This document shows, piece by piece, positions 1-11,249 of a stretch of DNA of 11,249 nucleotides. A program made the translations under genes and the position numbers. The notes under the pieces were generated by a model that worked only from the letters and a program-made list of their open reading frames with translations, had not been told where the DNA came from and made no database searches. The stretch is from a virus. Its lineage: Duplodnaviria > Heunggongvirae > Uroviricota > Caudoviricetes. The stretch's first letter is position 1; every line of letters starts with the position of its first letter. The DNA lies in IMG/VR virus record IMGVR_UViG_2859793810_000003; one strand, written 5' to 3'.

Positions 1-819
1 ATGTGTCAGGTATTTGGTGTATCCAGGAGCGGTTATTACAACTGGGTACAGCATGAACCCTCAGACAGAAAACAAAGTGATGAGCGGCTAAAACCGGAGA
101 TTAAGGTGGCACATATCCGCACTCGCGAAACATATGGAACCCGGCGGCTCCAGACGGAGCTGGCAGAGAATGGCATCATCGTTGGTCGTGACCGACTGGC
201 ACGTCTTCGTAAGGAGCTGAGGCTACGCTGTAAGCAGAAACGCAAGTTCAGAGCGACTACGAACCCGAACCACAATCTGCCAGTTGCGCCAAATCTGCTG
301 AACCAGACGTTCGCTCCTACAGCACCAAATCAGGTCTGGGTGGCGGACCTGACGTATGTTGCCACACAGGAGGGATGGTTGTACCTCGCTGGCATCAAAG
401 ATGTTTATACGTGTGAAATTGTCGGCTACGCCATGGGAGAGCGCATGACAAAAGAGCTGACAGGTAAAGCCCTGTTTATGGCGCTCAGGAGCCAGCGCCC
501 ACCTGCCGGGCTAATCCACCACTCTGATCGAGGTTCACAGTACTGCGCATACGATTACCGGGTCATACAGGAGCAGTCTGGTCTGAAAACATCAATGTCG
601 CGTAAAGGTAACTGTTACGACAACGCTCCGATGGAAAGCTTCTGGGGAACGCTGAAAAATGAGAGCCTGAGCCACTATCGTTTTAATAACCGGGATGAAG
701 CCATCTCAGTAATACGGGAATACATTGAGATTTTCTACAATCGTCAGCGTCGTCACTCTCGTCTGGGGAATATCTCCCCGGCAGCCTTCAGGGAAAAATA
801 TCATCAGATGACTGCTTAA
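1..819 (+). CDS. IS3-family transposase OrfB (DDE integrase catalytic region), IS600-like; the OrfAB frame presumably continues upstream of the window
   Basis: 272-aa ORF with IS3-family OrfB character (HHSDRGSQY, CYDNAPMESFW motifs); one nucleotide different at the C-terminus from the copy at 8826-9644 (HQMTA vs HQMAA). Confidence 0.85.
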   Translation: MCQVFGVSRSGYYNWVQHEPSDRKQSDERLKPEIKVAHIRTRETYGTRRLQTELAENGIIVGRDRLARLRKELRLRCKQKRKFRATTNPNHNLPVAPNLLNQTFAPTAPNQVWVADLTYVATQEGWLYLAGIKDVYTCEIVGYAMGERMTKELTGKALFMALRSQRPPAGLIHHSDRGSQYCAYDYRVIQEQSGLKTSMSRKGNCYDNAPMESFWGTLKNESLSHYRFNNRDEAISVIREYIEIFYNRQRRHSRLGNISPAAFREKYHQMTA

Positions 820-862
820 AAAAAGAACAAATGGTAGTGTCCGCTATTGCCAGTACACCTCA
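1..862 (+). mobile_element. IS3-family insertion sequence (IS600-like), right-hand portion only; left end lies outside the window
   Basis: OrfB-type transposase ORF at 1-819; a near-identical inverted copy sits at 8783-9731; both copies share the same 43 bp after the orfB stop and diverge immediately after ...cagtacacctca (862 here), which defines the IS right end with the CA terminus typical of IS3-family elements. IS600 assignment is from memory of the OrfB sequence. Confidence 0.8.
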
Positions 863-1169
863 CTGACATGCTAAAGCAAAAAATAGATGAATAAGTTGAG
901 TTGTGCATATGTAGCCTGACCGTCACAAAGTATATGGTGTCTGTACCAGTAAGATGATGGCCGGACTCTTTAAAAAAGAGCTGACCTGCACAATACAGGA
1001 TGGACTTAGCAATGGCTGCTCCTGGCACAAAGCGGACAGTGATCACCGTTCTTACGACTACTTTCTGACTTCCTTCGTGACTTGCCCTAAGCATGTTTGA
1101 AGTGGCACACTGAATTTGGCCACCTGAACAGAGGTGATATGCTCACCTCAGAACAACACAGGTGCTCCA

Positions 1170-2338
<1,169 letters not shown>

Positions 2339-2397: not shown

Positions 2398-2637
2398 ATG
2401 GGTAGCATTAACCTGCGTATTGACGATGAACTTAAAGCGCGTTCTTACGCCGCGCTTGAAAAAATGGGTGTAACTCCTTCTGAAGCGCTTCGTCTCATGC
2501 TCGAGTATATCGCTGACAATGAACGCTTGCCGTTCAAACAGACACTCCTGAGTGATGAAGATGCTGAACTTGTGGAGATAGTGAAAGAACGGCTTCGTAA
2601 TCCTAAGCCAGTACGTGTGACGCTGGATGAACTCTGA
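2398..2637 (+). CDS. relB: RelB antitoxin (type II TA, RelB/DinJ family)
   Basis: 79-aa protein MGSINLRIDDELKARSYA...RNPKPVRVTLDEL, near-identical to E. coli K-12 RelB as I recall it; stop overlaps relE start (ATGA overlap). Confidence 0.93.
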   Translation: MGSINLRIDDELKARSYAALEKMGVTPSEALRLMLEYIADNERLPFKQTLLSDEDAELVEIVKERLRNPKPVRVTLDEL

Positions 2638-2924
2638 TGGCGTATTTTCTGGATTTTGACGAGCGGGCACTAAAGGAATGGCGAAAGCTGGGCTCGACGG
2701 TACGTGAACAGTTGAAAAAGAAGCTGGTTGAAGTACTTGAGTCACCCCGGATTGAAGCAAACAAGCTCCGTGGTATGCCTGATTGTTACAAGATTAAGCT
2801 CCGGTCTTCAGGCTATCGCCTTGTATACCAGGTTATAGACGAGAAAGTTGTCGTTTTCGTGATTTCTGTTGGGAAAAGAGAACGCTCGGAAGTATATAGC
2901 GAGGCGGTCAAACGCATTCTCTGA
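2637..2924 (+). CDS. relE: RelE toxin (ribosome-dependent mRNA endonuclease)
   Basis: 95-aa protein MAYFLDFDERALKEWRKL...SEVYSEAVKRIL, recognised as K-12 RelE; translationally coupled to relB. Confidence 0.93.
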   Translation: MAYFLDFDERALKEWRKLGSTVREQLKKKLVEVLESPRIEANKLRGMPDCYKIKLRSSGYRLVYQVIDEKVVVFVISVGKRERSEVYSEAVKRIL

Positions 2925-2995
2925 ACCAAAGCATGACATCTCTGTTTCGCACCGAAGGTGACACTTCTGCTTTGCGTTGACAGGAGAAGCAGGCT

Positions 2996-3151
2996 ATGAA
3001 GCAGCAAAAGGCGATGTTAATCGCCCTGATCGTCATCTGTTTAACCGTCATAGTGACGGCACTGGTAACGAGGAAAGACCTCTGCGAGGTACGAATCCGA
3101 ACCGGCCAGACGGAGGTCGCTGTCTTCACAGCTTACGAACCTGAGGAGTAA
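2996..3151 (+). CDS. hokD: Hok-family type I toxin HokD (RelF), 51 aa
   Basis: Not in the ORF track (below length cut-off). Own translation: MKQQKAMLIALIVICLTVIVTALVTRKDLCEVRIRTGQTEVAVFTAYEPEE, a Hok-family membrane peptide; position downstream of relBE matches the K-12 relBEF arrangement. Confidence 0.85.
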   Translation: MKQQKAMLIALIVICLTVIVTALVTRKDLCEVRIRTGQTEVAVFTAYEPEE

Positions 3152-3368: not shown

Positions 3369-3620
3369 ATGATGAACATCGAAGAACTGCGTAAAATTTT
3401 TTGTGAAGATGGCCTCTATGCTGTGTGCGTTGAAAATGGAAATATTGTTAGTCATTACCGCATTGTGTGTTTGCAAAAAAATGGGGCTGCGTTAATTAAT
3501 TTTGTGGATGCCCGAGTGACGGACGGATTTATCTTGCGCGACGGTGAGTTTGTCACTTCATTACAGGCATTGAAAGAGATCGGAATAAAAGCTGGCTTTT
3601 CTGCTTTTTCAGAAGAATAA
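3369..3620 (+). CDS. rem: Small prophage protein, Rem-like (Qin prophage rem), function unknown
   Basis: 83-aa ORF with Shine-Dalgarno GGAAGGA upstream; sequence and position (between hokD and ydfU-like gene) match my recollection of K-12 rem; symbol from memory. Confidence 0.6.
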   Translation: MMNIEELRKIFCEDGLYAVCVENGNIVSHYRIVCLQKNGAALINFVDARVTDGFILRDGEFVTSLQALKEIGIKAGFSAFSEE

Positions 3621-3966: not shown

Positions 3967-5016
3967 GTGCGGGTATTACTTCGACCTGTTCTGGTTCCGG
4001 AACTCGGGCTGGTGGTCCTTAAGCCCGGTCGTGAATCCATGCCGGTATTCCACAATACCCGGGTACTGGTGGAGCCGGAACCGAAAAGCATGCGTAATCT
4101 GCCGTCCGGGGTCGTTCCTGCCGTTCGCCAGCCGCTAGTGGAAGACAAAACATTGCTGCCGTTTTTCAGTAACGCACGGGTGATTCGTGCTGCTGGTGGT
4201 GCTGGCGCATTGTCTGACTGGCTGTTGCGCCATATTAAATCCTGCCAGTGGCCACACGGCGATTATCATCACAGCGAAACCGTCATTCACCGTTATGGTA
4301 CCGGCGCAATGGTATTGTGCTGGCACTGCGACAACCAGCTGCGTGACCAGACATCCGAATCACTCGAGCAACTTGCTCATCAAAACCTGTCAGCATGGAT
4401 GATTGACGTCATCGGTCACGCAATAAGCGGTACGCAGGAGCGTGAATTATCTCTGGCTGAATTATCCTGGTGGGCGGTCCGCAATCAGGTGGCGGACGCG
4501 CTACCGGAAGCGGTATTACGTCGTTCGCTGGGGTTGCGTGCGGAAAAAATCCGCTCAATGTACCGTGAAAGCGACATCGTGCCGGGAGAGCAGACCGCCA
4601 CCAGCATACTGAAGCAGCGCACAAAAAATCTTGCGCCGCTGCCTCACGCCCACCAGCAACAGAACCCACAACAGGAAAAGACGGTGGTCAGCATTGCCGT
4701 TGATCCTGAGTCTCCGGAATCTTTCATGAAACGACCTAAACGTCGCCGCTGGGTTAACGAGAAATACAAACGCTGGGTGAAGACACAGCCGTGTGCGTGT
4801 TGTGGTAAGCCAGCCGACGATCCCCATCACCTGATTGGTCATGGTCAGGGCGGAATGGGGACCAAATCTCACGATATTTTCACGCTACCGCTGTGTCGGG
4901 AGCATCACAACGAGCTTCATGCGGATCCTCTGGCGTTCGAAGAAAAGCATGGTTCTCAGGTTGATTTAATTTTTCGTTTTCTTGATCACGCCTTTGCAAC
5001 TGGCGTGCTTGGGTAA
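3967..5016 (+). CDS. ydfU: YdfU-like DUF968 prophage protein with C-terminal Cys/His (HNH-like) motif
   Basis: 349-aa ORF, GTG start preceded by GGAGG; N-terminus MRVLLRPVLVPELGLVVLKPG and overall sequence recalled as K-12 YdfU; C-terminus contains CACCGKPADDPHHLIGHG...CREHHNELH. Confidence 0.75.
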   Translation: MRVLLRPVLVPELGLVVLKPGRESMPVFHNTRVLVEPEPKSMRNLPSGVVPAVRQPLVEDKTLLPFFSNARVIRAAGGAGALSDWLLRHIKSCQWPHGDYHHSETVIHRYGTGAMVLCWHCDNQLRDQTSESLEQLAHQNLSAWMIDVIGHAISGTQERELSLAELSWWAVRNQVADALPEAVLRRSLGLRAEKIRSMYRESDIVPGEQTATSILKQRTKNLAPLPHAHQQQNPQQEKTVVSIAVDPESPESFMKRPKRRRWVNEKYKRWVKTQPCACCGKPADDPHHLIGHGQGGMGTKSHDIFTLPLCREHHNELHADPLAFEEKHGSQVDLIFRFLDHAFATGVLG

Positions 5017-5399: not shown

Positions 5400-6221
5400 A
5401 TGAAACTGGAAGATTTACCGAAATACTACTCCCCAAAATCCCCTGGCCTGACCGATGCATCGGCCTCAACGTCAAAAGATGCGCTGAGTATCACTGATGT
5501 GATGGCCGCGCAGGGCATGACACAGAATCGGGCTGAGATGGGTTTTTCTGCGTTCCTGGGGAAAATGGGCATCAGTATGAATGACAGGGCGCGGGCAACA
5601 GAATTACTGGCAGATTATGCACTCAGTCGGTGCGATCGTGTGGCGGCGTTGAGAAAACTTCCGGCAGAAATAAAACCGGTAGTGATGCGCATTATGGCTT
5701 CGTACGCTTTTGAGGATTATGCCCGCAGCGCAGCGAGTAAAAAGCAGTGCCCTTGTTGCTATGGGGAAAAATTTATTGAAAGCATAGTTTTTACAAACAA
5801 GATCCAGTATCCGGATGGTAAGCCGCCGGTATGGGCAAAGTGTACGAAAGGTGTGTATCCGTTTTACTGGGAAGAATGGAAAAAAGTCAGGGAGGTGGTA
5901 AAAGTTGCCTGTCCGGAGTGTGGCGGAAAGGGTGAGGTTTCCACCGCCTGTAAGGATTGCCGTGGGCGTGGTGTCGCCATTCATCGTGAAGAGTCGGTAA
6001 AACGTGGTATGCCTGTTATCAGAGACTGCCAGCGTTGTGGTGGTCGTGGCTATGAAAGACTACCATCAACGGAGGCATTTAATGCTATATGCGAGGTGAC
6101 AAACCAGATAACACGCGCGTCATGGGAAAAAACAGTTAAGAAATTTTATGATGCGCTGGTGACCCGGTTTGATATTGAAGAAGCATGGGCTGAGCGGCAG
6201 TTAAAAAAGGTAACTAGGTAA
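5400..6221 (+). CDS. Late-gene antiterminator Q-like protein (QuuQ-like), carrying four CxxCxGxG zinc-finger repeats
   Basis: 273-aa ORF positioned between rusA and a PR'/tR'-like module, as for Q in lambdoid phages; N-terminus resembles my recollection of K-12 QuuQ; four CxxCxGxx motifs (CPCCYGEK, CPECGGKG, CKDCRGRG, CQRCGGRG) seen in the translation. Confidence 0.7.
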   Translation: MKLEDLPKYYSPKSPGLTDASASTSKDALSITDVMAAQGMTQNRAEMGFSAFLGKMGISMNDRARATELLADYALSRCDRVAALRKLPAEIKPVVMRIMASYAFEDYARSAASKKQCPCCYGEKFIESIVFTNKIQYPDGKPPVWAKCTKGVYPFYWEEWKKVREVVKVACPECGGKGEVSTACKDCRGRGVAIHREESVKRGMPVIRDCQRCGGRGYERLPSTEAFNAICEVTNQITRASWEKTVKKFYDALVTRFDIEEAWAERQLKKVTR

Positions 6222-6365: not shown

Positions 6366-6441
6366 GGCCCTTTAGCTCAGTGGTGAGAGCGAGCGACTCA
6401 TAATCGCCAGGTCGCTGGTTCAAATCCAGCAAGGGCCACCA
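6366..6441 (+). tRNA. ileZ: tRNA-Ile2 (anticodon CAU, lysidine-type), phage-borne ileZ-like
   Basis: 76-nt cloverleaf folded by hand: acceptor GGCCCTT/AAGGGCC, D-stem GCTC/GAGC, anticodon loop CTCATAA (CAT at 6399-6401), T-loop TTCAAAT, 3' CCA encoded. Sequence much closer to E. coli ileX than to Met tRNAs as I recall them. Confidence 0.85.
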
Positions 6442-6542
6442 TCACAAACCGCCATTAGCTTATCAGGAAGAGCAGACGACACGATAACAGGGTTGTTGGT
6501 GCGGGGGGCGGGTCCCCGATGGCGGTCCATTATCGGTATTCA

Positions 6543-6619
6543 GCGTTGTTAGCTCAGCCGGACAGAGCAATTGCCTTCTAAGCAATCGGTCACTGGTTCG
6601 AATCCAGTACAGCGCGCCA
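6543..6619 (+). tRNA. tRNA-Arg (anticodon UCU, reads AGA)
   Basis: 77-nt cloverleaf folded by hand: acceptor GCGTTGT/ACAGCGC, anticodon stem ATTGC/GCAAT, loop CTTCTAA (TCT at 6577-6579), T-loop TTCGAAT, CCA encoded; similar to argU. Confidence 0.85.
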
Positions 6620-6729
6620 TATTCATTCTTCCAGATTCCTTCCGGCAGAGCCTTATACTGAAATATACCTGGCTCAGGATATTGTTGAAAATATTATATA
6701 TTTGTCAAAAATAAAAGTTCTGTTAAGTA

Positions 6730-7083
6730 TTGATTGAGTATTTGTTATACGGTCTAATGGTTTTTTCAGCATTAAGTATTTATCATTCATATGGTGTGGG
6801 TAGAGTGAATATTGATGAGGCGTCGGGGTGTTTCATCCTTAGGCAGCGTATTGATATAGTCAATGCAGCACGAGCAAAGGCCTTCAGCCGTTTGACAGTT
6901 TTGTTCTGTACTCCTGATCGTCTTTCGGGAAGAGACGTTATTATTCTGAATAGTGATGCTATACAGAGGGTTTGCGATGAGTTCATGGTTGCTAATTCAG
7001 AATTATTTGCTCTTGTTCAGGAGTACAACAGAATAGCCAGGACCTGTGGTATGGATGAACTTCGGATTACTCATCTGGGGTAG
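6730..7083 (+). CDS. Hypothetical protein in cargo region (117 aa from a TTG start; first in-frame ATG at 6757)
   Basis: Only the open frame supports this; no convincing Shine-Dalgarno; visibly AT-rich; contains several AGA/AGG/ATA codons. Not recognised. Confidence 0.3.
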   Translation: MIEYLLYGLMVFSALSIYHSYGVGRVNIDEASGCFILRQRIDIVNAARAKAFSRLTVLFCTPDRLSGRDVIILNSDAIQRVCDEFMVANSELFALVQEYNRIARTCGMDELRITHLG

Positions 7084-7475
7084 ATACATATCTGGATTAT
7101 CACCTGTTACGGTAAAAAGTGATTGCTTACTGTTTTTGTTAATGGCATTGCAGCAGCCGGATAATGTCAGTGCCGGCTGACGGTGTGCTGGTGGCGGGTG
7201 TGGTGGTTGTTGCTTTCCCGTTGCTGAAAAAGAAAACGCCAGACTGTTAGCCGGGTATCAGTTAGCGGGAGAAATTTTTAAATACTTCACAATTCAGGCG
7301 GTTGACTGTTGTCTGGTTTGCGGGGAGTTTGTTAAAAGAAACTGGCATGGTGAATCCCCCTGTGCGGAGGGGCAATCAGCGAGTAGGTATATGGGATAAT
7401 CGCGGATTCAGGTGCTGGTACTGAATTCACCGGGAGGCACCCGGCACCATGGAATGGCACATAGCGCCACTCTCC

Positions 7476-7510
7476 AGCCCCTCTCCGGAGGGGCTGTTTA
7501 TATTGATTTT
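7476..7510 (+). terminator. Rho-independent terminator (perfect 8-bp stem)
   Basis: agcccctc-tccg-gaggggct followed by GTTTATATTGATTTT. Confidence 0.55.
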
Positions 7511-7530
7511 GTCAGATGTGAGTAAACTCC

Positions 7531-7866
7531 TTATGGACTTTGTTGTTTTAGTCCATAAGGGCATATTTGCAGAGTGCAACGGTTATTAAAGCATTCATTC
7601 AATACGTTATCTGTATTTGTAGGGCATTCCTGGCTGTTTTTGATTAAATTCCAGAATGTTTTATTGAATGGTACTACGTTGTAAATGGTTACAGGTAGCA
7701 CTTTGTTATTGAGCATGATGCCTGTGTGAGTCAGTGTAAATATACTTTCAGGAGGTAAGAAAGCATCCGATTGATACCAGATTATTAATTTTATTTTACT
7801 CCATATGACTGAAAAAGATATTCCGCATGATGGCTGGATAACTGTATCAATCACAATCCACTTCAT
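7531..7866 (-). CDS. Hypothetical protein, opposite strand to the phage late operon (111 aa, Cys-containing C-terminus)
   Basis: ORF with good Shine-Dalgarno (AAGGAA, 5-nt spacer, ATG) on the minus strand; AT-rich; a perfect 11-bp inverted repeat (7529-7560) overlaps its stop codon. Not recognised. Confidence 0.45.
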
Positions 7867-8110
7867 TTAGTTTCCTTGTTTATGCCTTGCTGGTGATGTT
7901 CTGAAAAGTATAAATGATATTTTTGAATTAAACCATAGAACAGAATTATTTTTCTGATGTTGTTTATTGTTTATTTAAATGCAGGGTGGTTTATATCTCG
8001 TCTTGTAGTTTATCCATGCATATCTGCTTGATAATCAGGTTTTTATTTAAGGTATGGTTTTGTGTTTTTTCTGTATTACATGTCAGGTATTTTAAAGAAT
8101 TATTTTTCAG

Positions 8111-8314
8111 ATGTTGGAAAGAACCATGGCATTTAAACACTATGATGTTGTCAGGGCGGCGCCGCCGTCAGATCTTGCGGAAAAGCTGACACATAAACTG
8201 AAAGAGGGCTGGCAGCCGTTTGGTAGTCCGGTGGCCATAACCCCTTATACCCTGATGCAGGCGATTGCAGCAGAAGGTGATGTGGTGGTCAGTGGTGCAA
8301 CTGAGCCGGAGTGA
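8111..8314 (+). CDS. Small conserved lambdoid late-region protein (family uncertain); likely start at ATG 8126
   Basis: ORF MAFKHYDVVRAAPPSDLAEKLTHKLKEGWQPFGSPVAITPYTLMQAIAAEGDVVVSGATEPE with GGAAAG 4 nt before the 8126 ATG; sequence feels familiar from E. coli prophages but I cannot name the family reliably. Confidence 0.5.
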   Translation: MLERTMAFKHYDVVRAAPPSDLAEKLTHKLKEGWQPFGSPVAITPYTLMQAIAAEGDVVVSGATEPE

Positions 8315-8621: not shown

Positions 8622-8782
8622 ATGGACCAGATGGAAAAAATCACAACAGGTGTGTCATACACCACGTCAGCGGTGGGAACGGGCTACTGGTTCCTGCAGT
8701 TGCTGGACAGGGTTTCCCCGTCTCAGTGGGCGGCAATAGGCGTGCTGGGGAGTCTGCTGTTTGGGCTGCTGACATATCTGAC
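8622..8782 (+). pseudogene. Phage-21-type pinholin (S21 family) gene, 3'-truncated by IS insertion; dual-start motif M-D-Q-M
   Basis: [54 protein letters not shown] resembles S21 pinholin ([45 protein letters not shown]... as recalled); Shine-Dalgarno GGAGA upstream; the reading frame runs into the IS600-like right end at 8783 and terminates after 6 IS-derived codons. Confidence 0.8.
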
Positions 8783-9731
8783 TGAGGTGTACTGGCAATA
8801 GCGGACACTACCATTTGTTCTTTTTTTAAGCAGCCATCTGATGATATTTTTCCCTGAAGGCTGCCGGGGAGATATTCCCCAGACGAGAGTGACGACGCTG
8901 ACGATTGTAGAAAATCTCAATGTATTCCCGTATTACTGAGATGGCTTCATCCCGGTTATTAAAACGATAGTGGCTCAGGCTCTCATTTTTCAGCGTTCCC
9001 CAGAAGCTTTCCATCGGAGCGTTGTCGTAACAGTTACCTTTACGCGACATTGATGTTTTCAGACCAGACTGCTCCTGTATGACCCGGTAATCGTATGCGC
9101 AGTACTGTGAACCTCGATCAGAGTGGTGGATTAGCCCGGCAGGTGGGCGCTGGCTCCTGAGCGCCATAAACAGGGCTTTACCTGTCAGCTCTTTTGTCAT
9201 GCGCTCTCCCATGGCGTAGCCGACAATTTCACACGTATAAACATCTTTGATGCCAGCGAGGTACAACCATCCCTCCTGTGTGGCAACATACGTCAGGTCC
9301 GCCACCCAGACCTGATTTGGTGCTGTAGGAGCGAACGTCTGGTTCAGCAGATTTGGCGCAACTGGCAGATTGTGGTTCGGGTTCGTAGTCGCTCTGAACT
9401 TGCGTTTCTGCTTACAGCGTAGCCTCAGCTCCTTACGAAGACGTGCCAGTCGGTCACGACCAACGATGATGCCATTCTCTGCCAGCTCCGTCTGGAGCCG
9501 CCGGGTTCCATATGTTTCGCGAGTGCGGATATGTGCCACCTTAATCTCCGGTTTTAGCCGCTCATCACTTTGTTTTCTGTCTGAGGGTTCATGCTGTACC
9601 CAGTTGTAATAACCGCTCCTGGATACACCAAATACCTGACACATCGCTTCAATGGGAAATTGTTGTCGCCATTGTTCGATTAACGCGTATTTTTCAGCGA
9701 CTCCTGTGCAAAATACGCTGTTGCTTTTTTT
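8783..9731 (-). mobile_element. IS3-family insertion sequence (IS600-like), second copy, inverted relative to the first; left portion (IRL and most of orfA) missing, truncated by IS1
   Basis: Right end identical to the copy at 1-862 up to the CA terminus (reverse complement at 8783); the OrfAB reading frame continues upstream of the orfB ATG (…KYALIEQWRQQFPIEAMCQVF) and is cut at 9731 directly at an A-rich slippery-like heptamer. Confidence 0.85.
8826..9644 (-). CDS. IS3-family transposase OrfB (IS600-like), copy 2
   Basis: 272-aa ORF, one amino-acid different from the ORF at 1-819. Confidence 0.85.
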   Translation of the reverse strand: MCQVFGVSRSGYYNWVQHEPSDRKQSDERLKPEIKVAHIRTRETYGTRRLQTELAENGIIVGRDRLARLRKELRLRCKQKRKFRATTNPNHNLPVAPNLLNQTFAPTAPNQVWVADLTYVATQEGWLYLAGIKDVYTCEIVGYAMGERMTKELTGKALFMALRSQRPPAGLIHHSDRGSQYCAYDYRVIQEQSGLKTSMSRKGNCYDNAPMESFWGTLKNESLSHYRFNNRDEAISVIREYIEIFYNRQRRHSRLGNISPAAFREKYHQMAA

Positions 9732-9746
9732 GGTAATGACTCCAAC

Positions 9747-10250
9747 TTACTGATAGTGTTTTATGTTCAGATAATGCCCGATGACCTTGTCATGCAGCTC
9801 CACCGATTTTGAGAACGACAGTGACTTCCGTACCAGCCTTGCCAGATGTTGTCTCAGATTCAGATTATGTCGCTCAATGCGCTGAGTGTAACGCTTGCTG
9901 ATAACGTGCAGCTTTCCCTTCAGGCGTGATTCATACAGCGGACAGCCATCCGTCATCCATACCACGACCTCAAAGGCCGACAGCAGGCTCAGAAGACGCT
10001 CCAGTGTGGCCAGAGTGCGTTCACCGAAGACGTGCGCCACAACCGTCCTCCGTATCCTGTCATACGCGTAAAACAGCCAGCGCTGACGTGATTTAGCACC
10101 GACGTAGCCCCAATGTTCGTCCATTTCAGCGCAGACAATCACATCACTGCCCGGTTGTATGCGCGAGGTTACCGACTGCGGCCTGAGTTTTTTAAGTGAC
10201 GTAAAACCGTGTTGAGGCCAACGCCCATAATGCGTGCACTGGCGCGACAT
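9747..10250 (-). CDS. insB: IS1 InsB (catalytic part of the InsAB' transposase, made by -1 frameshift)
   Basis: 167-aa protein ...[38 protein letters not shown]... recognised as IS1 InsB; overlaps insA in the -1 frame. Confidence 0.95.
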
Positions 10251-10444
10251 CCGACGCCATTCATGGCCATATCAATGATTTTCTGGTGCGTACCGGGCTG
10301 AGAGGCGGTGTAAGTGAACTGTAGTTGCCATGTTTTACGGCAATGAGAGCAGAGATAGCGCTGATGTCCGGCAGTGCTTTTGCCGTTACGCACCACGCCT
10401 TCAGTAGCGGAGCAGGAAGGACATCTGATGGAAATGGAAGCCAC
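10169..10444 (-). CDS. insA: IS1 InsA (transposition repressor, N-terminal part of InsAB')
   Basis: 91-aa protein [43 protein letters not shown]... recognised as IS1 InsA. Confidence 0.95.
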
Positions 10445-10499: not shown

Positions 10500-11249
10500 C
10501 TGGTTGTAGACTTGTCTCAGCATATAAGTTGCTGGAATGATTACGGCGGCTGGTACGACACTGATCATATAAACCTGGTACAAGGCTCAGCTTTCGCAGG
10601 CTCCCTACAGTCATATAAAGGATCGCTGTACTGGAATAATGTGACCTACCCCTTCCCGTTGACGACAAATACCAACGTATTGGATATTGGTGATAAGACA
10701 CCGATGCCATTACCGTTAAAACTCTATATTACCCCAGTTGGGGCGGCCGGTGGAGTTGTCATAAAAGCGGGGGAAGTCATTGCCCGTATTCATATGTATA
10801 AAATTGCAACATTAGGAAGCGGAAATCCGCGTAATTTTACGTGGAATATTATTTCAAATAACAGTGTTGTTATGCCAACAGGCGGCTGCACCGTTGATAG
10901 TCGTAATGTCACCGTGGATCTCCCGGACTTTCCTGGAAGCGCAGAAATACCCCTTGGCGTATATTGCTCAAGCGAACAAAAGCTCTCATTTTATCTTTCG
11001 GGTGCCACCACTGACAGTAGCCGACAAGTGTTTGCTAACACAGCACCTGATGCAACAAAAGCATCGGGAGTGGGTGTCACTCTAATGCGTAATGGAAAAA
11101 TACTGGCTACGGGAGAAAATGTCTCCCTGGGGACAGTAAATAAAAGCAAAGTACCTCTGGGTTTAAGCGCAACCTATGGACAAACAGGAAACAAGGTTTC
11201 AGCCGGAACCGTCCAGTCAGTCATTGGTGTCACTTTTATCTATGAATAA
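10500..11249 (+). pseudogene. FimH-like fimbrial tip adhesin gene (chaperone-usher family), 5'-truncated by IS1; 3' end and stop codon intact at window end
   Basis: The frame is open from the IS1 junction; [17 protein letters not shown]...[24 protein letters not shown]...[12 protein letters not shown] aligns by eye with E. coli FimH (LVVDLSTQIFCHNDYPE...VVPTGGCDVSARDVTVTLPDYPGS...VQSIIGVTFVYQ); the signal peptide and start of the lectin domain are missing. Confidence 0.8.

Follow-up and report, generated by a model that had tools for sequence, protein, structure and literature searches.

An opposite-strand prophage open reading frame once seen as family-less matches iraL, a characterized RssB anti-adaptor gene

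Introduction

The closest described relative of the gene analyzed here is iraL of strain CFT073 (c1429), which Hryckowian et al. (2014, mBio; PMC4045071) assigned to the "potB genomic island" and described as a homologue of iraM, with 58.9% identity between IraL and IraM. The same study provides a functional characterization of this protein. [quoted passage not shown] (ii) Deletion of iraL lowers the amount of sigma-S in log phase in CFT073 and in Shigella sonnei. In the deletion mutant, sigma-S has a half-life of ~2.5 min instead of ~5 min, and iraL expressed from its own promoter restores the longer value. (iii) K-12 carrying plasmid-borne iraL is viable and gains log-phase sigma-S. (iv) The gene is enriched in uropathogenic Escherichia coli and in Shigella. 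In later work, IraL levels were found to be higher in a fur mutant, and iraL mRNA increased 1.6 log2-fold on a shift to 37 °C.

Several other proteins are related to IraL. RssC of Salmonella belongs to the same family of labile anti-adaptors, and rssC and iraL share 49% identity as determined by ClustalW (PMC4045071). IraM (YcgW) of E. coli K-12 is PhoPQ induced under Mg2+ starvation and contacts both domains of RssB; IraL, in contrast, works in log-phase cells that are not stressed and binds the N-terminal domain alone. The structure of the IraM core bound to RssB has been solved (Brugger et al. 2023; PMC10844676) and revealed a PmrD-like beta-barrel that spans the two domains of RssB as well as the helical linker, blocking the alpha4-beta5-alpha5 face where sigma-S binds. 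The C-terminal tail of IraM, described as flexible and less conserved, was cut off for crystallization. The same authors report that PmrD is the sole structural relative of the IraM core in the Protein Data Bank (PDB); the two proteins have in common the core fold and the binding of a receiver domain. However, PmrD is PhoP activated, and its partner is PmrA, which it protects in its phosphorylated form from dephosphorylation.

Here, we report the analysis of a stretch of 11,249 nucleotides of viral DNA (Caudoviricetes; IMG/VR record IMGVR_UViG_2859793810_000003), which is referred to as the window. A first-pass annotation, made from the sequence alone, had singled out a minus-strand open reading frame (ORF) of 111 amino acids at 7531-7866 as an independently expressed moron belonging to no family that could be named. 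We conclude that this ORF is almost certainly iraL, a prophage gene with its own promoter whose product binds RssB and thereby stabilizes RpoS, and nothing was found that contradicts this identification. What had appeared as a "family-less" opposite-strand ORF thus turns out to be a named gene that has been characterized and published since 2014, i.e., an ordinary known gene.

Results and Discussion

Gene identity

The coding sequence is located as follows.

7531..7866, minus strand: iraL coding sequence, RssB anti-adaptor, 111 amino acids plus stop codon (from the NF007393 match and the identity to CFT073 IraL)

The ORF listing of the window contains a single such minus-strand ORF at this place, with an ATG start and 111 amino acids, exactly as initially described. 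Its length alone is moderately unusual, since 24 of 2,000 shuffles (1.2%) of positions 7400..8100 contained an ORF of 111 amino acids or more. This modest figure would speak for a chance ORF in AT-rich noncoding DNA; the ORF has a G+C content of 34.8% and the upstream region (7867..8100, 234 nt), which had correctly been noted as AT rich, one of 28.2%, versus 48.7% in the whole window. Nevertheless, we give the chance reading no credence. That the coding gene is real follows from the match to family NF007393 (see below), from dN/dS values well below 1 (0.17 versus K-12 iraM and 0.29 versus the 90%-identical STEC1590 variant), and from the presence of 4 to 11 stops in each of the other five frames across the ORF. 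In addition, the frame is kept in the K-12 (59%) and Citrobacter (54%) homologues, and published experiments at the protein level exist.

The family can be named. The protein matched the NCBIfam model NF007393, "anti-adapter protein IraM," with 162 bits versus a curated cutoff of 121 (E value, 4.7e-48), and the alignment covers residues 1 to 110 of the protein and positions 1 to 113 of the 114 positions of the model. A direct comparison revealed that the protein is identical to CFT073 IraL at all 111 residues. At the nucleotide level, 335 of 336 positions are identical, and the sole difference is synonymous (TGC versus TGT). The CFT073 counterpart, annotated as IraM (1343465..1343800), is in the potB prophage, the site given for iraL in that strain. 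Hryckowian et al. (PMC4045071) classified as iraL those genes that have at least 95% identity to CFT073 iraL across the whole coding region and that do not overlap with iraM, and the identity values of the window ORF place it among them. The identity with K-12 IraM amounts to 59.5% at the amino acid level. The statement of the first-pass annotation that no family could be named is thus incorrect: the ORF encodes IraL, a member of the IraM/IraL/RssC family of anti-adaptors.

This gene is widespread. At least 80% of the segment 7400..8000 of the window is carried by 1,441 of 5,426 complete E. coli genomes (megablast), in which the RefSeq/PGAP annotation of the same ORF is "anti-adapter protein IraM." Four phage records annotate it likewise, and the exact protein is present, under the same name, on at least 1,000 contigs of a large protein collection. 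The gene can still look anonymous, since the sole match in PHROGs was phrog_4407, of "unknown function," the RefSeq label is IraM and not IraL, and a scan of the local Pfam-A copy with E values up to 10 retrieved no match. K-12 IraM, included as a control, also had no match in that scan, so the local Pfam copy cannot name this family. Precomputed Pfam tables label the product as PF11183 (PmrD).

Protein domains and RssB contacts

Two segments of the protein can be distinguished.

7632..7866, minus strand: N-terminal domain, codons 1-78, homologous to the crystallized RssB-binding core of IraM (phmmer against PDB)
7534..7631, minus strand: C-terminal tail, codons 79-111, with four Cys residues (C81, C92, C97, and C102) and the ICPYGLK motif (alignment)

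The N-terminal domain was delimited by its sequence homology with the IraM chain 8twd_A, which matched residues 1 to 78 without gaps and with an E value of 9.1e-32. We then inspected the positions at which IraM contacts RssB. [quoted passage not shown]

The structural kinship with PmrD suggests another function, namely, that of a PmrD-like connector that acts on a different response regulator, e.g., PmrA, instead of an RssB anti-adaptor. Several observations point in this direction: the fold of the IraM core resembles only PmrD in the PDB, IraM and PmrD both raise the net phosphorylation of their partner (PMC10844676), and the precomputed Pfam tables carry the PmrD label mentioned above. However, the local Pfam copy contained no match of IraL to PmrD at the sequence level, and the model that passed its curated cutoff is that of IraM. 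[quoted passage not shown] We therefore regard a PmrD-like connector as very improbable and retain the assignment as an RssB anti-adaptor.

The Cys-bearing C terminus that had been quoted in the first-pass annotation is present in the ORF translation. An alignment of IraL, K-12 IraM, and the STEC1590 variant showed no variation in the columns of the four Cys residues and of the ICPYGLK motif. This putative four-Cys module could conceivably bind metal or serve a redox function.

K-12 IraM thus resembles the window protein in its membership of NF007393, in the gapless alignment of the N-terminal 78 residues, and in the C-terminal cysteines and motif. They differ in the four substituted contacts described above and in genomic location, since K-12 iraM lies beside the e14 element (icdC, mcrA) and not in the interval between Q and the holin gene. 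More distant relatives came from a distant-homologue scan of genome contigs, which returned only seven loci. A Citrobacter homologue (L016, 4001..4330; 54% identity by tblastn) has the same length and frame and maintains the C-terminal Cys pattern as well as the ICPYGL motif; in contrast to the window gene, it is chromosomal and not associated with a prophage, being located ~2 kb upstream of phoP (6476..7150). In E. coli ECGI0523, a degraded iraM copy was found between ycgX and mcrA (L017, 4001..4318; 32% identity by tblastn). The translation of 4001..4330 of this locus contains five stops, so that it is an iraM pseudogene and an example of decay in this family.

Prophage context

The features that define the surroundings of iraL in the window are listed below.

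1..862 and 1134..2338: second IS600 copy and IS911, at the left end
2398..3151, plus strand: relB-relE toxin-antitoxin pair and hokD, as in the K-12 Qin prophage
3369..3620, plus strand, after hokD: rem, as in the K-12 Qin prophage
5400..6221, plus strand: Q antiterminator (PF03589)
6366..6441, plus strand: tRNA-Met, anticodon CAT (ARAGORN; the CFT073 equivalent is tRNA-Ile in RefSeq)
6543..6619, plus strand: tRNA-Arg, TCT (ARAGORN), between Q and the iraL module
7164..7250, plus strand: DUF3927 remnant, 28 amino acids (43 amino acids elsewhere)
8111..8314, plus strand: DUF1737 remnant, 67 amino acids, the N-terminal stub of a ~617-amino-acid DUF1737-SASA esterase
8622..8801, plus strand: P21-type holin (PF04971), truncated by IS600
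8826..9644, minus strand: IS600
9747..10444, minus strand: IS1
10512..11249, plus strand: fimbrial adhesin gene

The window prophage is a decayed Qin-like lambdoid remnant with the order relB-relE-hokD-rem-DUF968-rusA-Q, followed by the iraL module. This module, located between Q (PF03589) and the P21-type holin and not beside e14, occupies the Q-to-holin interval, in which, in K-12 Qin, cspF and cspB presumably reside. The comparison with CFT073 shows a common position in the lambdoid Q-to-holin interval, a common orientation, and common neighbors (tRNA genes, DUF3927, DUF1737, and a class II holin). The differences concern the host prophage: that of CFT073 is at potB, whereas the prophage that carries the window copy occupies a Qin-like site that features relBE-hokD-rem and is flanked by ydf genes, and this prophage has been truncated by IS600 and IS1. 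Loci L006 and L007 match the window with 99.9% identity, and the assemblies GCA_020274125.2 and GCA_002217695.1 are likewise 99.9% identical across this region. Related loci include S. boydii CP049606 and LR213452, the latter an accession that appears in a paper on S. flexneri; together with the IS load, these accessions indicate that the source is most probably a Shigella genome. Two tRNAs are present at this site in the window versus three in CFT073 and STEC1590.

The exact protein was found in 10 distinct contexts, and in all 10 its gene has the opposite orientation and is placed between Q, a member of family PF03589 or PF06323, and the class II holin. Since this moron layout is conserved in all contexts retrieved, the architectural reading of the first-pass annotation holds. 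Its description of a gene inside a plus-strand late operon requires a modification: the gene is indeed on the opposite strand in the gap between Q and the lysis genes, but of the late operon only a remnant persists. IS600 cut the holin and gave it a new C terminus (...TEVYWQ), and the lysis and structural genes have been lost, as the sequence continues directly with IS1 and the fimbrial adhesin gene. In other prophages, the ~617-amino-acid DUF1737-SASA esterase is intact beside iraL (L018, L019, L021, L025, and L026).

The gap between Q and the lysis genes of lambdoid prophages often holds lysogenic-conversion genes. This position, along with the "unknown function" of phrog_4407, would be compatible with a moron for phage defense, superinfection exclusion, or toxicity, and exclusion or toxicity had been put forward in the first-pass annotation. 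However, a comparison of the window protein with the PADLOC models of defense proteins at E values up to 1 retrieved 0 families, for which reason we rejected a defense role. Moreover, a different function, the rewiring of the host stress response, has been established experimentally, and K-12 with plasmid-borne iraL is viable (PMC4045071). We thus hardly consider a defense or toxin moron credible, and the analysis below proceeds with the anti-adaptor iraL.

Promoter, transcript start, and ribosome-binding site

The signals upstream of iraL are as follows.

7872..7877, minus strand: Shine-Dalgarno sequence AAGGAA, 5 nt (ACTAA) before the ATG at 7866 (read from the sequence)
7867..7899, minus strand: 5' untranslated region of 33 nt, starting at 7899 (ACATCACCAGCAAGG...) (CFT073 RACE end)
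7907..7912, minus strand: likely -10 hexamer TATACT, 7 nt upstream of the mapped start (from its position in the sequence)
7925..7934, minus strand: likely -35 region, GGTTTAATTC here versus GGTTTACATTC in CFT073 (alignment; putative assignment)
7940, minus strand: C to T substitution upstream of the promoter (alignment; common to a subset of the same lineage)

The Shine-Dalgarno sequence proposed in the first-pass annotation was read at 7877..7872. [quoted passage not shown] The minus-strand start is thus known from CFT073, with its sequence at 7899 here, and, together with the conserved placement between Q and the holin, this agrees with the initial view of an independently expressed moron. 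The 5' untranslated region, the transcript-start sequence, the -10 hexamer, and the Shine-Dalgarno sequence are common to the window and CFT073.

The -35 element in CFT073 is probably TTTACA, judged as the best -35-like hexamer there, although it is only 15 bp from TATACT. Because of this 15-bp spacing, a simple sigma-70 consensus scan missed the RACE-supported promoter, which was reported neither in the window nor in CFT073. Two other weak promoter matches returned by that scan were not trusted.

In the upstream stretch, analyzed with a criterion of at least 96% identity to CFT073, the window differs from CFT073 at four positions. One of these is a 1-bp deletion within the likely -35 element: a C is missing between 7929 and 7928, which converts TTTACA to TTTA·A and destroys the likely -35. 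The C to T substitution is 11 nt further upstream. After the deletion, every hexamer located 14 to 18 bp from TATACT agrees with TTGACA in at most 2 of the 6 positions, as read from the sequence, whereas the -10 hexamer, the transcript start, and the Shine-Dalgarno sequence are unchanged. The deletion is present in all seven loci with an IS600-cut holin (L004 to L009 and L012) and in none of the 13 other iraL loci. Among 1,446 complete E. coli genomes with this promoter, none contained the window version at an identity of at least 99%, the best value being 98.5%. The -35 deletion is confined to this IS600-truncated lineage, which is probably Shigella, and is the only new detail here. For comparison, a -35 point mutation has been reported in the second iraL copy of JJ1886, and the authors were unsure of its expression (PMC4045071).

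These data bear on whether the window copy is iraL by descent but silent or strongly downtuned, i.e., a decaying passenger of a dead prophage. Such a reading draws on the disrupted TTTACA with no good substitute at a suitable distance, on the fixation of the deletion in the IS600-cut-holin loci and its absence elsewhere, on the dismantling of the surrounding prophage by IS elements, which left a truncated holin and shortened DUF3927 and DUF1737 genes, and on the iraM pseudogene of another genome, which indicates that members of this family do decay. On the other hand, the protein is intact and identical to CFT073 IraL in all seven deletion-carrying loci despite the decay around it, and this preservation of the coding sequence throughout the lineage speaks against a complete loss of function. 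Furthermore, the start, -10, and Shine-Dalgarno signals are as in CFT073, Shigella is among the groups in which iraL is enriched, and deletion of iraL in S. sonnei reduces the amount of sigma-S in log phase (PMC4045071). Taken together, we consider a silent copy unlikely, though clearly less so than the alternatives discussed above. Somewhat more doubtful still is the idea that the -35 deletion is a pathoadaptive change that retunes or silences the stabilization of sigma-S in log phase, or that the putative Cys tail serves as a metal or redox switch that controls the stability of the anti-adaptor.

Proposed mechanism

We thus favor an iraL copy that would act like CFT073 IraL, as its identical protein sequence suggests. 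In the proposed mechanism, a sigma-70-type promoter of its own would drive iraL on the strand opposite to the phage late genes, so that the gene would be expressed from the resident prophage without induction. The product would bind RssB, the response-regulator-like adaptor, and sequester or inhibit it; the N-terminal PmrD-like domain would dock, as does that of IraM, on the receiver domain of RssB at its alpha4-beta5-alpha5 face. Bound RssB would be unable to hand RpoS (sigma-S) to the ClpXP protease, and, since RssB would no longer deliver it, RpoS would be stabilized already in exponential growth. A prophage moron of this type would rewire the general stress response of its host by shielding RpoS from proteolysis.

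Neighboring features

Three further features were identified on the plus strand between the tRNA genes and iraL.

6730..7083, plus strand: ORF of 117 amino acids (phrog_2873, function unknown; E value, 2e-69 over the whole length)
7316..7505, plus strand: STnc100, a prophage-associated small RNA (Rfam RF02076, 124 bits versus a gathering score of 47)
7475..7496, plus strand: G+C-rich hairpin, terminator of STnc100, 35 nt beyond the iraL stop, with a 9-bp stem followed by TTTATATT (terminator scan)

The 117-amino-acid ORF may be a real, overlooked phage gene. Its equivalent is unannotated in RefSeq CFT073 and FDAARGOS_536 and was not called in L004 to L009. STnc100 and iraL are convergent, and 25 nt separate the end of the small RNA from the stop codon of iraL. 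The hairpin at its end may also stop the transcription of iraL, given its position; on the minus strand, it is not followed by a T-run. The 3' 100 nt of STnc100 are conserved at 94 to 97% in many Stx-converting phages, and a preprint from 2026 links this RNA with the PasD small RNAs.
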